A stretch of DNA of 34,164 nt from IMG/VR virus record IMGVR_UViG_2974732849_000001; one strand, 5' to 3'. Shown piece after piece: positions 123-25,703 of the stretch. Numbering within the stretch: the stretch's first letter is position 1; each line of letters opens with the position of its first letter. This DNA is from a virus. Taxonomy: Duplodnaviria > Heunggongvirae > Uroviricota > Caudoviricetes > Crassvirales. Under the pieces are notes generated by a model that was not told the DNA's origin, did no database searches, and worked only from the letters and a program-made list of their open reading frames with translations. The translations under genes were made by a program, and so were the position numbers.

Positions 123-129
123 CAGTTGT

Positions 130-470
130 GTTGGAGTAGCAAGTACTTCAGGATAGAGAATCATCAACTCTTAAAAGCATAGATGACCCCTTGTAATCAG
201 GAGTTTACTTGGGCACAGCAGCTTAGGAAAGTAAAGGATACTAAGAAGGCTACAGGCAAGTGCCCCACTTGAAGAGGATTACAAATAAGTATTTAGCCGA
301 GCTTTAGGCCAAGTCTTCAAGGGTGGTGTAAAAGACTACAGAGATAACACAGAGTGAGAACTAATAATATATAAACGGGGTAAAAGACTGATTATAAGGA
401 TGCAAGCCATAATGCTGGCAGGGTCTCTTTATATTTTAAGAAAAGGTTTGATAATTCTAGATTCTGTTGG
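130..470 (+). ncRNA. Candidate structured ncRNA or long leader, family unknown
   Basis: Long-range pairings 157-162/460-465, 163-167/448-452, 170-176/434-440, 181-189/421-428, 191-198/277-284, 211-216/260-265; no convincing ORF; starts just after P1. Confidence 0.5.
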
Positions 471-507
471 AATAAAGGGTAATAGGATAAAATTACAAAT
501 AATAAAA

Positions 508-1730: not shown

Positions 1731-1801
1731 TGTCTTGTGGTGTAAAGGTAACACATGGGTCTTTGGTCCCCACATTGTAGGTTCGAGTCCTGCCAAGACA
1801 A
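1731..1801 (+). tRNA. trnQ: tRNA-Gln(UUG)
   Basis: Cloverleaf: TGTCTTG/CAAGACA acceptor, loop CT-TTG-GT, TTCGAGT T-loop. Confidence 0.9.
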
Positions 1802-1810
1802 CAAGAAGAT

Positions 1811-1882
1811 GCCCTCTTAGTACAAAGGACAGTACATAAGTCTTCTAAACTTAGAATATAGGTTCGATTCCTATAGGGGGTA
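1811..1882 (+). tRNA. trnR: tRNA-Arg(UCU)
   Basis: GCCCTCT/AGGGGGT acceptor, TAAGT-CTTCTAA-ACTTA anticodon arm. Confidence 0.92.
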
Positions 1883-1890
1883 CTTGTTAT

Positions 1891-1962
1891 GGGGATGTAG
1901 ACTATGGGTTAGGTCATAGCCCTTTCAAGGCTAAGGATAAGGTTCAAGTCCTTACTTCCCTA
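1891..1962 (+). tRNA. trnE: tRNA-Glu(UUC)
   Basis: TAGCC-CTTTCAA-GGCTA anticodon arm, TAAGG-TTCAAGT-CCTTA T arm. Confidence 0.9.
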
Positions 1963-1967
1963 CTAAT

Positions 1968-2040
1968 AGATTATGTGGTGTAGTGGTCTGCATATCACAC
2001 TGTCAATGTGAAGGCTAGGGTTCAATTCCCTCATAATCTG
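1968..2040 (+). tRNA. trnD: tRNA-Asp(GUC)
   Basis: AGATTATG/CATAATCT stem, TCACA-CTGTCAA-TGTGA anticodon arm, G discriminator. Confidence 0.88.
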
Positions 2041-2086
2041 CCCCGTTTATAAGAAAGTCCTATATCACAGCGGTGATTAGGCAAAT

Positions 2087-2171
2087 GGAAAGGTAACTGA
2101 ATGGGATTCAGCCTAGTCTTGAAAACTAAGGGAACAGTAAAATGTTTGGGGGTCGGGACCTCATCTTTCCG
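2087..2171 (+). tRNA. trnS: tRNA-Ser(UGA)
   Basis: GGAAAG/CTTTCC acceptor, CTAGT-CTTGAAA-ACTAA, long variable arm; atypical T-loop. Confidence 0.75.
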
Positions 2172-2209
2172 CTAAATAGATGTGTTCATTGACTTATTGG
2201 TAAGGAATT

Positions 2210-2295
2210 GGAGAGTAAACCTAAAAGGTTTTAGGGACTGTCTGCTAAACAGATTGTACTAGCAATGGTATGTGTTTCGAGTACACTGCTCTCCG
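2210..2295 (+). tRNA. trnS: tRNA-Ser(GCU)
   Basis: GGAGAG/CTCTCC acceptor, loop CT-GCT-AA, long variable arm. Confidence 0.85.
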
Positions 2296-2315
2296 CTAAA
2301 TAATAAAAAAAAAAT

Positions 2316-2390
2316 AGGGAATTAGTCCAGTTAGGTTAGGATGCAGCATTTGGGATGCTGAGGTCAAGAGTTCGAGTCTCTTATTCCCTA
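2316..2390 (+). tRNA. trnP: tRNA-Pro(UGG)
   Basis: AGGGAAT/ATTCCCT, CAGCA-TTTGGGA-TGCTG. Confidence 0.92.
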
Positions 2391-2402
2391 CTAATCATTA
2401 AT

Positions 2403-2475
2403 GGGGAGGTAGCATAAATGGATAATGCGCTAGATTTGCACTCTGGAAGATTGGGTTCGAGTCCCACCTGCTCCA
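2403..2475 (+). tRNA. trnA: tRNA-Ala(UGC)
   Basis: CTAGA-TTTGCAC-TCTGG anticodon arm, TGGG-TTCGAGT-CCCA. Confidence 0.88.
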
Positions 2476-2559
2476 CATTGTTTTCTTGTTTTTCATAATA
2501 CCAAGCTTTGCTTGAACCCTCTTTTGGGTAGTTAGAGGTTAAAGAAACTGCCCTATCAA

Positions 2560-2633
2560 TGCTCCTTAGTTCAGTGGTTCAGAATAGTTCCCTTACAAGG
2601 AAAAGGTCATAGGTTCGAGTCCTATAGGAGCAA
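2560..2633 (+). tRNA. trnV: tRNA-Val(UAC)
   Basis: TGCTCCT/AGGAGCA, loop CT-TAC-AA. Confidence 0.92.
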
Positions 2634-2638
2634 CTAAT

Positions 2639-2710
2639 GGGGATATAGCTGGAAGGTCTATGCACTTGGCTGTTAACCAAGAGATAAAAGTTCGATTCTT
2701 TTTATCCCCG
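2639..2710 (+). tRNA. trnN: tRNA-Asn(GUU)
   Basis: GGGGATA/TATCCCC, CTTGG-CTGTTAA-CCAAG. Confidence 0.92.
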
Positions 2711-2718
2711 CAAATTCT

Positions 2719-2790
2719 AGGTTCTTAGTTTAATTGGCAAAACACTTCTCTCCAAAAGAAGAGTTATGGGTTCGATTCCTTTAGAATCTG
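2719..2790 (+). tRNA. trnW: tRNA-Trp(CCA)
   Basis: AGGTTCT/AGAATCT, CTTCT-CTCCAAA-AGAAG. Confidence 0.9.
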
Positions 2791-2796
2791 CATTAT

Positions 2797-2868
2797 TGGC
2801 ACATCTTCTAATGGTCAGGAAGCTACTCTGATAAGGTAGTAATCAAGGTTCAATTCCTTGTGTGCCAA
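2797..2868 (+). tRNA. trnI: tRNA-Ile(GAU)
   Basis: TGGCACA/TGTGCCA, CTACT-CTGATAA-GGTAG. Confidence 0.88.
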
Positions 2869-2874
2869 CTATAT

Positions 2875-2946
2875 TCTGATGTACTTCAATGGTAGAAGGC
2901 TGCTCTCATAAGGCAGTAGCTAGTGGTTCGAGTCCACTCATCAGAA
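2875..2946 (+). tRNA. trnM: tRNA with CAU anticodon (elongator Met, or Ile2 if lysidine-modified)
   Basis: TCTGATG/CATCAGA, CTGCT-CTCATAA-GGCAG. Confidence 0.88.
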
Positions 2947-2966
2947 CTAGGTTAATGCCTTAATAT

Positions 2967-3040
2967 ACTCACTTAGCTCAGTAGGTTAGAGCAGGAATCT
3001 TATACATTCAAGGTCAATGGTTCAAATCCATTAGTGAGTA
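2967..3040 (+). tRNA. trnI: tRNA-Ile(UAU), rare anticodon
   Basis: ACTCACT/AGTGAGT, canonical D arm GCTC..GAGC, loop CT-TAT-AC, AATGG-TTCAAAT-CCATT. Confidence 0.88.
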
Positions 3041-3045
3041 CTAAT

Positions 3046-3119
3046 GTTCCTATAGCTGAATTGGTTAAAGCAACAGTCTCTTAAACTGTGGACTCTGGGT
3101 TCAAGTCCCAGTGGGAACA
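3046..3119 (+). tRNA. trnK: tRNA-Lys(CUU)
   Basis: GTTCCTA/TGGGAAC, ACAGT-CTCTTAA-ACTGT. Confidence 0.92.
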
Positions 3120-3124
3120 CTCAT

Positions 3125-3196
3125 TTCCCTAAAGCATTGGTGGTGATGCTAGAGACCTTTAATCTCTGGAACTAGGTTCGACTCCTAGTGGGGAAA
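3125..3196 (+). tRNA. trnK: tRNA-Lys(UUU), C33 instead of U33
   Basis: TTCCCTA/TGGGGAA, AGAGA-CCTTTAA-TCTCT. Confidence 0.82.
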
Positions 3197-3226
3197 CATA
3201 ATTGTTTAACTCCAAATTTTACAGTT

Positions 3227-3334
3227 ATGAGAAGAGTTCTTTCTTTTATTAAGAAAGCTGGTAATGTTTATGTAAGAATCATTGCTAAGAGTCAGATGAT
3301 GACTCCTACAGGGTCTATTCCAATACCGGAATAA
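3227..3334 (+). CDS. 35-aa small protein MRRVLSFIKKAGNVYVRIIAKSQMMTPTGSIPIPE
   Basis: Hand translation; below the ORF-track cutoff; A/T-rich upstream; amphipathic N-half and TPTGxIP tail. Confidence 0.55.
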   Translation: MRRVLSFIKKAGNVYVRIIAKSQMMTPTGSIPIPE

Positions 3335-3360
3335 CCCTTCATTTGGAGGTAAACTAATTA

Positions 3361-3443
3361 GGGGTAGCTTTAATGTGATGAATTAAAGAGGACTGTAAAT
3401 CCTCTGCCATGTGCTATTTAAGGTTTGATTCCTTTCTGCCCCA
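3361..3443 (+). tRNA. trnY: tRNA-Tyr(GUA)
   Basis: GGGGTAG/CTGCCCC, GAGGA-CTGTAAA-TCCTC, long variable arm. Confidence 0.88.
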
Positions 3444-3510
3444 CTTCAATAGAAATCAAAGTCCTTGACTTATGGAAGGTGATGCAGGTAGAGATGCAAA
3501 TAAGTCATTT

Positions 3511-3585
3511 GGGTACTGGGCAAGTCTGGTGACATTGCGTGAGACTGAAAATCTCAAGAATAAAGTTCGATTCTTTGAGTACCCA
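3511..3585 (+). tRNA. trnF: tRNA-Phe(GAA)
   Basis: GGGTACT/AGTACCC, TGAGA-CTGAAAA-TCTCA. Confidence 0.92.
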
Positions 3586-3591
3586 CCTAAT

Positions 3592-3678
3592 ACTCCTGTG
3601 ATGGAATTGGAATACATACTGACTTTAAAAGGTTAGGGCCTGAAATAAGGATTAGAAGTTCGACTCTTCTCAGGAGTA
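3592..3678 (+). tRNA. trnL: tRNA-Leu(UAA)-like with 8-nt anticodon loop
   Basis: ACTCCTG/CAGGAGT, long variable arm, CTGAC-TTTAAAAG-GTTAG. Confidence 0.7.
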
Positions 3679-3681
3679 TAT

Positions 3682-3763
3682 GCCCAAGTATGCGAATTGG
3701 TATAGCAGCAGCACTTAGGATGCTGTGGGTAAGACATTGTGGGTTCGACTCCCACCTTGGGTA
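3682..3763 (+). tRNA. trnL: tRNA-Leu(UAG)
   Basis: GCCCAAG/CTTGGGT, CAGCA-CTTAGGA-TGCTG, long variable arm. Confidence 0.92.
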
Positions 3764-3795
3764 CTAAAAATAATTTGAAAATAATTAAGTAAATG

Positions 3796-3827
3796 CTTGG
3801 TTATATCATAAGTTTTACTTAACTTTG
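3796..3827 (+). promoter_or_regulatory. Bacteroidota promoter P3
   Basis: CTTG (3796-3799), 20 nt, TAACTTTG (3820-3827). Confidence 0.75.
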
Positions 3828-3847
3828 CATTATTAAAATAAGAGAAT

Positions 3848-4294
3848 ATGTTTGAGGAAGAGAGTTTATTTACTCCAATAGAATCAGATAGGGATATGTT
3901 ATCCGGTTCTTCACAACTATTCATAGATTTCTTGAATCAGATTGAAGGTTGGAAGACTAAATGTAAGAATCTACATTGGGCAGCTCCTAAAAAGAATATA
4001 CATGTATATCTTGATGAGTTCCTTGAAATCCTATCAGACTACCAAGATAGTCTTGCAGAAGGTTACATGGGTATCCTAGGTAAGATGCAGCCTAATGCTA
4101 TCAAAGGCACTTCAAGTGATGCATTGAATGCTTACACATTTATAGCAGAGGTTAAATCTGCCACCTTAGCATTTTATGCTAAGATACCACAGGATGTTAT
4201 CTATAAGGGTATTACTTCAGAATGTGAGACTTTCATTCAGAACATCAACAAGTATGATTACTTGTTCCACTTATGTGATATAAGACCATATTAA
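3848..4294 (+). CDS. Dps/ferritin-like protein
   Basis: NLHWAA...IHVYLDEF...YQDSLAE pattern of the Dps-type ferroxidase four-helix bundle. Confidence 0.7.
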   Translation: MFEEESLFTPIESDRDMLSGSSQLFIDFLNQIEGWKTKCKNLHWAAPKKNIHVYLDEFLEILSDYQDSLAEGYMGILGKMQPNAIKGTSSDALNAYTFIAEVKSATLAFYAKIPQDVIYKGITSECETFIQNINKYDYLFHLCDIRPY

Positions 4295-4300
4295 GACACC

Positions 4301-4373
4301 GTCCCCTTAGTGTTAATGGTTAGCAAGCTTGTCTTGTAAACAAGAAGAGAAGGTTCAAATCCTTTAGGGGACT
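4301..4373 (+). tRNA. trnT: tRNA-Thr(UGU)
   Basis: GTCCCCT/AGGGGAC, CTTGT-CTTGTAA-ACAAG. Confidence 0.92.
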
Positions 4374-4389
4374 CACAAGTTACTAAAAG

Positions 4390-4575
4390 CTGTCTTACCT
4401 ACAGTGAGAGAGTAACACCTAATGCTACTAGGTAAATCTAGCAGGAGCTGACCTGCGCCAACTTAAATTAAAAAGCTGAAACTAAAATTAGAGTTCAGTA
4501 GATGTAGGTGATTAGGGGTGCAAGTTAAGGTGATACTTGCAATGCCTAAGTACCAGTTACCCAAATCTTAGGCTC
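4390..4575 (+). ncRNA. Candidate multi-stem ncRNA between tRNA-Thr and tRNA-Gly
   Basis: Stems 4395-4403/4503-4511, 4441-4445/4452-4456, 4476-4480/4495-4499, 4519-4525/4535-4541, 4544-4550/4567-4573; no ORF. Confidence 0.5.
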
Positions 4576-4577
4576 TT

Positions 4578-4649
4578 GTAGATATGGTGTTAGCGGTAGC
4601 ATATGACATTGCCAATGTCAAGGGGTCAGTTCAAGTCTGATTATCTACT
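4578..4649 (+). tRNA. trnG: tRNA-Gly(GCC)
   Basis: GTAGATA/TATCTAC, TGACA-TTGCCAA-TGTCA. Confidence 0.9.
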
Positions 4650-4653
4650 CAAT

Positions 4654-4724
4654 GTGGGATTAGTGTAATGGTAACATGTAACCCTTCCAAGGTTAATTTG
4701 ACAGTTCGAGTCTGTTATCCCACT
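4654..4724 (+). tRNA. trnG: tRNA-Gly(UCC)
   Basis: GTGGGAT/ATCCCAC, TAACC-CTTCCAA-GGTTA. Confidence 0.92.
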
Positions 4725-4731
4725 CTAACAT

Positions 4732-4801
4732 CGCGGAGAGAATTGGTATTCAATCCAGTCTCATAAGCTGGACTCCAAGTGTTCGATTCACTTCTCCGCA
4801 A
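4732..4801 (+). tRNA. trnfM: Initiator-like tRNA-fMet(CAU), shortened D arm
   Basis: CGCGGAG/CTCCGCA with C1:A72 mismatch, loop CT-CAT-AA. Confidence 0.75.
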
Positions 4802-4816
4802 CTAGTTTAAATTGAT

Positions 4817-5327: not shown

Positions 5328-5508
5328 TGAGGAGCCTGTTCTATATTGCAAGCATTGTTTATCCTTGAAGGTGAGATTTGTACCTAGGATGAAGGATTCG
5401 GATTATTGTGATGAGTGTGGCTCTACTGATATTGGGGAGTGCTCAATAGAAGAGTGGGAGACTAATTATAGGAACAGGTACGGACATAAATATTTGGAAA
5501 ACTATTAA
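5290..5508 (+). CDS. Zinc-ribbon protein
   Basis: CKHC...CDEC four-Cys motif. Confidence 0.7.
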   Translation: MDNSNTEGQNTYNEEPVLYCKHCLSLKVRFVPRMKDSDYCDECGSTDIGECSIEEWETNYRNRYGHKYLENY

Positions 5509-5520
5509 ATATAAAATGAT

Positions 5521-5805
5521 ATGGGAGAAAAGGAAGAACTTAGGCAGGAACAGCCATCTAAGATGAGTTATGAACAGTTGGAGAATGTGGCTCATCAATT
5601 GAGTGAACAAGTTAAGCAGTTGTACATGAGCCTTCAGAAATCTAATCTGGAGAATACATTCCAAAGACTTAACTATTTATTTAAGGTGGTAGAAAATGGT
5701 CACGCATTTAAGCCGGATTTCTTGAATAAGTGTACAGAGGAAATTGAAAATATAATGGCGATTCCTGAGGAGGACACCAAGGAAGAAGGTAAGGAAGAAA
5801 AGTAA
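5521..5805 (+). CDS. Hypothetical coiled-coil protein
   Basis: ORF track; helical heptad pattern. Confidence 0.7.
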   Translation: MGEKEELRQEQPSKMSYEQLENVAHQLSEQVKQLYMSLQKSNLENTFQRLNYLFKVVENGHAFKPDFLNKCTEEIENIMAIPEEDTKEEGKEEK

Positions 5806-5813
5806 ATATCATC

Positions 5814-10145: not shown

Positions 10146-10177
10146 CTTGCATGGAATTATATTTTTATTTAACTTTG
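10146..10177 (+). promoter_or_regulatory. Bacteroidota promoter P4
   Basis: CTTG (10146-10149), 20 nt, TAACTTTG (10170-10177). Confidence 0.8.
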
Positions 10178-10199
10178 CAAAGTAACTAGATTGAAGTAT

Positions 10200-25641: not shown

Positions 25642-25673
25642 ATTGTATGGGTGTAAAATTCTATATAACTTTG
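25642..25673 (+). promoter_or_regulatory. Bacteroidota promoter P6 for the capsid operon
   Basis: ATTG (25642-25645), 20 nt, TAACTTTG (25666-25673). Confidence 0.75.
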
Positions 25674-25703
25674 CATTGTTTAATTATATCATAATGGGAG
25701 ATT

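Follow-up and report, generated by a model that had tools for sequence, protein, structure and literature searches.

The transfer RNA (tRNA) cluster of phage T4 also encodes two stable RNAs, C and D (species 1 and 2), which are not tRNAs and whose function is unknown. GOLLD and ROOL are large "ornate" RNAs of phages and prophages that are often encoded beside tRNA islands, fold into multiple helices with many conserved unpaired bases, and have neither a known protein partner nor a known function (PMC12286853). The crAss-like phage phi14:2 has been reported to produce abundant long noncoding RNAs (ncRNAs) of unknown function from long intergenic regions (bioRxiv 10.1101/2020.03.07.982082). Here we describe a structured RNA at positions 127-480 (+ strand) of a 34,164-nucleotide (nt) stretch of DNA, hereafter the window, from the Crassvirales record IMGVR_UViG_2974732849_000001 in IMG/VR. 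The RNA is ~350 nt long in the window and ~275 nt in a short form carried by some relatives, its ends being placed by inference, and it lies upstream of an array of 22 tRNA genes. An earlier sequence-only reading of the window had proposed a structured RNA with its own promoter at 130-470, and this observation was borne out in part: the outer helix and two inner helices were right, and other parts of the proposed fold were wrong.

The T4 RNAs C and D are smaller than the RNA described here and are processed from a tRNA precursor, whereas this RNA has its own promoter and bears no sequence relation to them. In each of the 11 loci whose flanks reach far enough to include both features, the RNA gene lies upstream of the tRNA array, 0.1-5 kb away and in the same orientation; it thus shares with GOLLD and ROOL a phage-borne position next to tRNA islands. 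It is like them also in its multi-helix fold and its many conserved unpaired bases. GOLLD and ROOL differ in being ~580 to >800 nt long, as opposed to 275-350 nt here, and the present RNA matches no Rfam family and is carried by Bacteroides-infecting crAss-like phages. The ncRNAs of phi14:2 come from another phage family, lie elsewhere in the genome and are seen already at the earliest time point; their likeness to the RNA here is one of description.

We consider it very probable that the region at 127-480 is a genuine gene for a structured RNA and that its family is uncatalogued. Its + strand fold has an energy of -91.8 kcal/mol (z = -2.74), which none of 100 dinucleotide shuffles equaled. 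The - strand gave a similar value (z = -3.15) and folding alone therefore does not give the strand. Covariation was counted over 90 pairs in an alignment of 37 sequences, using as controls the same pairs with partners slid by 1-3 columns. Standard pairs filled 89.9% of the alignment cells (34-47% in the slid controls), compensatory changes were seen at 32 of the 90 pairs (7-14 in the controls), and the covariation score was 0.199 as compared to 0.03-0.08. None of 500 shuffles matched the pairing and covariation values of the structure. When folded without constraints, seven of nine lineages closed both the 5' and the 3' arm, and a closed fold of the relative L005 lies within 1.8 kcal/mol of its optimum. 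Further, a covariance model (R1) built from six short-form sequences alone found the long forms end to end with 60-99 bits, spanning the inserted domain that the short form lacks, and scored the RNA of the window at 99 bits. About half of the positions are invariant while the helices have been rewritten, a pattern indicative of an exacting tertiary fold or of a specific partner. A search for pseudoknots by column covariation supported no P4-type pseudoknot, the signal being swamped by shared ancestry among the ~7 lineages.

These comparisons draw on relatives of the window in IMG/VR and in metagenomes. The first open reading frame (ORF) downstream of the RNA (508-1086, + strand), which lies outside it, encodes a 192-aa protein with a weak likeness to PI-PLC-X, and a search with this protein as the query returned 18 IMG/VR loci, four of which have the RNA region at 99% identity. 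In L005, the RNA region is just 75% identical to that of the window although the downstream proteins are 97% identical, and this comparison alone yields 14 pairs that are preserved although both partners have changed. Further copies were collected by scanning IMG/VR and metagenome contigs for invariant motifs. The RNA was found on 38 metagenome contigs, most of them from the human gut and 91-107 kb long, and the nearly invariant 21-nt motif of hairpin P7 retrieved every member of the family. Altogether we collected 56 full copies on crAss-like contigs, with 36 distinct RNA sequences besides that of the window, falling into ~7 lineages. The short form arises by clean loss of a 78-nt domain and was seen in L171, L033, L169, L031 and L020.

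The motif scan had no match in the genomes of 185,579 prokaryote species, blastn had none in 50,697 phage records, and the 15-nt motif AAGGCTACAGGNAAG gave, among the matches listed for IMG/VR, only chance matches beyond the known members. Nor was a homologous RNA detected by blastn, nhmmer or the covariance model upstream of more distant PI-PLC homologs (L007-L018). Model R1 gave one weak full-length match at L220:11607-11771 (+ strand; 16 bits, rough E ~0.1) on a contig that carries a different RNA family described below, and this match is probably noise. Our literature search found no paper describing the RNA.

All elements of the RNA are on the + strand. At the 5' end is hairpin P0 (129-151, pairs 131-138/144-151), composed of an element X, TGTTGGAGTA (129-138), a loop and the sequence TACTTCAG (144-151). 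Both the predicted fold and covariation support P1, a long irregular helix (149-189/421-466) that closes the molecule, much as it had been drawn from the sequence alone. Its outer register is CAGGAT/ATTCTG (149-154/461-466), which L184 preserves through a double compensatory change and which is better supported than the AGAATC/GATTCT register first suggested. Inside P1 is P2 (190-200/388-399, helix 7), with six pairs changed on both sides and a sequence that differs in nearly every lineage while always remaining complementary. P3 follows (204-210/378-384, helix 8) and is 98.8% paired, with three compensatory pairs and two invariant U-G pairs. The P4 arm (211-265) is built of helices 9-11 (211-216/260-265, 217-219/249-251 and 222-226/241-245), which are 94-100% paired and contain nine compensatory pairs, and it carries an invariant 8-nt bulge, ACAGGYAA (252-259), and a conserved apical loop. 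Two of these helices, GGGCAC/GTGCCC at 211-216/260-265 and CTTAG/CTAAG at 222-226/241-245, had been proposed beforehand and both show many compensatory changes.

The remaining elements are the optional domain, a joiner, a second hairpin and the 3' end. The optional domain (268-339), absent from the short form, consists of P5 (268-275/314-321), with three compensatory pairs, and the hairpin P6 (323-327/335-339). It is followed by a single-stranded joiner of 38 nt (340-377), in which AGAGATAA (340-347) and AATAATATATAAAC (363-376) are invariant in the 37-sequence alignment. Hairpin P7 (401-420) is nearly invariant in sequence and overlaps a spurious ATG at 400-402. The 3' element X' and tail (465-480), present in all lineages, comprise TGTTGGAATA (465-474) and a conserved AAGG. 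X' repeats the sequence of X in the same orientation; both have changed from GTT to CAA in the short form, and each is complementary to 144-151. From their sequences, these repeats may provide an alternative pairing, a shared binding site or processing signals. We also considered X and X' as possible trans-acting partners of the hairpin that precedes the first tRNA gene. That hairpin contains GTACTTC in the window; the hairpins of other lineages are unrelated and have no matching change, and the idea was rejected.

Several inner pairings proposed by the sequence-only reading did not survive this comparison. It had paired TTGTAATC with GATTACAA (277-284), while in every lineage the covariation pairs 191-200 with 388-399. 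Both copies of GTAAAAGACT that it had pointed out do exist, although L005 has a divergent second copy and the short form lacks the first. The switch that it had built on them, in which AGTCTT could pair with either copy, is not conserved, and AGTCTT instead belongs to P5.

Upstream of the RNA, a pattern match identified a Bacteroidetes-type promoter (91-122, + strand) with a -33 element TTTG (91-94) and a -7 element TAccTTTG (115-122). This promoter, which had also been noted before, is kept in all lineages, and transcription would start near 126-129. An extended form of the motif (TTTG ... TACTTAnCTTTGCA, 91-126) recurs at 1572-1607 and 3796-3831 and again at the start of two or three later genes. 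We counted seven matches in the window where 1.7 were expected, including those at 10166-10179 and 25662-25675, and the motif precedes the RNA, the tRNA array, the ORF starting at 3848 and two later gene blocks. A motif of this type has been reported as a middle/late promoter of crAss phages that often stands before tRNA genes (bioRxiv 10.1101/2020.03.07.982082). The promoter of the RNA is thus of the middle/late kind, used by the host polymerase.

We assign the RNA to the + strand because of this conserved promoter, the distribution of G-U pairs, and a terminator found in one relative. Seven pairs of the structure are mostly G-U, three of them invariantly so, and these would be A-C mismatches on the opposite strand. 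In L031, a 12-bp terminator on the + strand directly follows the RNA (shuffles give 0.0). The region also differs from its surroundings in composition, with a GC content of 0.40 that is like that of the tRNA array, while the flanking genes have 0.28-0.31. No ORF of at least 30 aa (code 11) was found at 125-480, except for a 5' extension of the next gene that would begin at ATG 400. The frame of this ATG contains stops in six lineages, named L030, L037, L005/L161, L179 and L175, and the short form has AAG in place of the ATG. By this comparison of sequences ATG 400 is not a start codon, as the sequence-only reading had held, and the annotation is corrected on this point.

The RNA does not fit a described family, which had also been the first impression from its sequence. 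Searched against Rfam, the whole window gave only tRNAs at the gathering score and positions 1-700 gave noise at E <= 10, with no match to RNase P RNA, transfer-messenger RNA (tmRNA), GOLLD, ROOL, raiA or Y RNA. Similarly, ARAGORN found no tRNA-like or tmRNA gene at 125-480.

The window is part of a crAss-like phage, as it encodes a major capsid protein (Crass_capsid, E = 7e-228), a terminase, a portal and tail genes. Its capsid protein shares 81% identity with that of Bacteroides phage PhiCrAss001 and 85% with that of cr128_1, both of which are assigned to the Steigviridae, Asinivirinae. All large ORFs of the window are on the + strand, and the RNA is the first gene of a rightward unit of >30 kb that begins at a strand switch, the upstream genes of close relatives pointing the opposite way. 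The tRNA array (1731-4802, + strand) contains 22 tRNA genes by Rfam and ARAGORN and has its own promoter at 1572-1607, which it keeps even where the RNA is only ~100 nt away. The feature directly 3' of the RNA is variable, with five arrangements among the lineages: a PI-PLC-like ORF, a member of the ORF133 family, an 87-aa ORF, a terminator or the tRNA promoter.

The PI-PLC-like gene adjoins the RNA in only some lineages. Its label derives from a Pfam PI-PLC-X match of 22.1 bits, which is under the cut-off of 23.1, and the ORF has no family in PHROGs. We observed that this gene is present in some and absent from others of otherwise near-identical phages. Of the protein genes that separate the RNA from the tRNA array, the most constant is ORF133 (1083-1484 in the window), whose product contains a HELGHS motif and is 46% identical to PhiCrAss001 gp4, annotated as DUF4157. 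Between the second promoter and the first tRNA gene, the window has a perfect 16-bp inverted repeat at 1647-1735 (z = -2.1), whose arms, AAGAAGTACTACCTTT / AAAGGTAGTACTTCTT, enclose a loop of ~45 nt and precede a T-run; the hairpins that other lineages have in this place are unrelated. In one close relative, a phage tmRNA was found ~3 kb upstream of the RNA (L162:3582-3965, - strand), in a region outside the window. It matches Rfam RF00023 over its full length with 67.5 bits, has an ARAGORN tag of GNTSYRVAA and adjoins a tRNA-Arg gene on the leftward arm.

From these sequence data, the interpretation that we tentatively favor, at a little short of an even chance, is that of a stable RNA acting in trans and tied to the translation RNAs of the phage. 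The RNA would become a discrete molecule through release or termination, and its numerous nucleotides that are both invariant and unpaired would bind a putative partner, which could be a protein, a tRNA, the ribosome or copies of the RNA itself. It would thereby join the translation-related RNA set of the phage, that is the 22 tRNAs here and the tmRNA of close relatives, in a role resembling that of the tRNA-island RNAs GOLLD and ROOL and of the stable RNAs in the T4 tRNA cluster. The varying downstream gene together with the array's own promoter speaks for an RNA gene in its own right and against a regulator dedicated to a single gene. Of the two interpretations offered by the sequence-only reading, the discrete ncRNA with its own promoter is upheld by the covariation, the promoter, the L031 terminator and the Rfam results, while a leader of the PI-PLC operon is disfavored by the variable downstream feature. 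Several observations weigh against a trans-acting RNA or against the strength of the evidence. There is no + strand terminator between the RNA and ATG 508 in the window, and likewise in most lineages, which means that the RNA could be a 5' leader. The lineages are also few, related to one another and drawn from one narrow phage clade, so that shared ancestry inflates the cell counts, and the structure that was tested had been partly derived from the same sequences.

A cis-acting leader of the rightward operon is possible and, though we think it unlikely, deserves serious attention. Such a leader could direct polymerase antitermination in the manner of HK022 put or EAR, protect or process the 5' end of a long tRNA and late-gene transcript, or switch read-through by exchanging an X:anti-X for an anti-X:X' pairing. 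The position of the RNA suits this well, since it stands directly after the promoter as the first element of the unit at the strand switch and, as with put and EAR, has terminator-like hairpins downstream; both the hairpin with its U-run before the first tRNA (1647-1735) and the L031 terminator could be read through. The parallel change of X and X', both complementary to 144-151, is consistent with the switch, but the compensatory change in L184 favors the static P1 register and not the alternative. The known antiterminator RNAs are also far smaller (~70 nt for put, ~120 nt for EAR) than an RNA of 275-350 nt with many invariant unpaired bases. Neither EAR nor any other cis-regulatory family of Rfam matches, and a downstream gene that differs by lineage and an array that has its own promoter even ~100 nt away also count against a leader. 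A narrower variant, the second option of the sequence-only reading, is a ligand-sensing riboswitch controlling the PI-PLC-like gene. In the window the RNA does lie 5' of this ORF and is not separated from it by a terminator, and it has a conserved core. However, the gene follows the RNA in only some lineages, the distant PI-PLC homologs of L007-L018 have no such RNA upstream, no riboswitch aptamer in Rfam matches and, as for a T-box, no constant downstream gene is seen among the five arrangements, which makes a riboswitch highly improbable.

Two other explanations were considered. The RNA could be a trans-acting anti-defense decoy that sequesters or misleads a host immune protein directed at RNA or tRNA, such as an anticodon nuclease, Ro60/Rsr or a toxin, beside phage tRNAs that replace cleaved host tRNAs. 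It is co-located with the 22-tRNA array, is confined to phages in the scan of 185,579 prokaryote species, and combines helices that turn over fast with invariant loops; moreover, Bacteroides thetaiotaomicron encodes a TROVE/Ro60 protein, which served as the control in our search for PF05731. That search found no TROVE/Ro60 gene in the nearest complete phage record (G001), no Y RNA or antitoxin RNA family matches, and no defense-related gene is linked to the RNA. The idea is purely contextual and we give it rather little credence. With Y RNA and YrlA the RNA shares a conserved stem formed by its 5' and 3' ends, but it is two to three times larger and has no Rfam match and no tRNA-like domain detectable by ARAGORN.

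The place beside the tRNAs and the many invariant unpaired nucleotides would also fit a ribozyme, or an RNA like that of RNase P, with a role in maturing the phage tRNA array and tmRNA. The smallest bacterial RNase P RNAs overlap in size with the 275-350 nt seen here, and RNase P RNA likewise has a link to tRNA and a helix closing its ends. Yet the conserved P4 regions of RNase P RNA are absent, no P4-type pseudoknot is supported, and the Rfam RNase P models found nothing at E <= 10 in the region. The type A model (RF00010) likewise had no match in the nearest complete phage record, while it did detect the RNase P RNA of Bacteroides thetaiotaomicron and 10 other controls. We therefore hardly expect the RNA to be of this kind.

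The same place in related phages can be occupied by another RNA. PhiCrAss001 (NC_049977.1; L190:662-990) and cr128_1 (L191:2385-2700) carry a different unannotated structured RNA in the same syntenic slot, 3' of a similar promoter and 5' of a gp4/ORF133 homolog (46% identity) or a PI-PLC-like homolog (29%) and of the tRNA array. We found this second family, which is of similar size to the first and has the core ATGAGAAAAGGTTGAGGGTAAA, at 35 IMG/VR loci. Its consensus fold has 51 pairs, with 92.9% of cells paired and 27 compensatory pairs as compared to 4-10 in slid controls. It has no Rfam match and shows no similarity to the first family in sequence or by covariance model. In PhiCrAss001, this RNA partly overlaps the annotated start of gp2 and lies just 5' of a doubtful 49-aa gene, gp3. 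By eye it had been suspected to be RNase P-like, which Rfam does not support. The slot seems to be conserved while the RNA that occupies it differs. It is conceivable, although we consider it doubtful, that the two families are functional equivalents in a conserved "RNA slot" heading the tRNA operon of Steigviridae-like crassviruses, with a new activity on tRNA or the ribosome such as tRNA docking, a GOLLD/ROOL-like RNA-only assembly or a ribozyme maturing the array.

Within the tRNA array of the window, ARAGORN reports 3591-3679 as a "tRNA-???" with a two-base anticodon, and Rfam scores it at just 35 bits, where relatives have a tRNA-Leu gene. This tRNA-like gene may have an odd anticodon loop or may be decaying. 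The gaps at 2044-2315 and 5328-5813 showed no significant excess of folding (z = -1.2 and -1.3).

In the human gut, the crAss-like phages rank with the most abundant viruses, and their ncRNAs are almost unexplored. The RNA described here represents a well-supported new family of complex folded RNA and a third kind of phage tRNA-island RNA beside GOLLD and ROOL. As it is smaller than either of these, it should be easier to probe and to solve. Furthermore, since the cultured phage PhiCrAss001 has a different RNA at the same slot, the function of the slot is open to genetics and RNA-seq in Bacteroides intestinalis.
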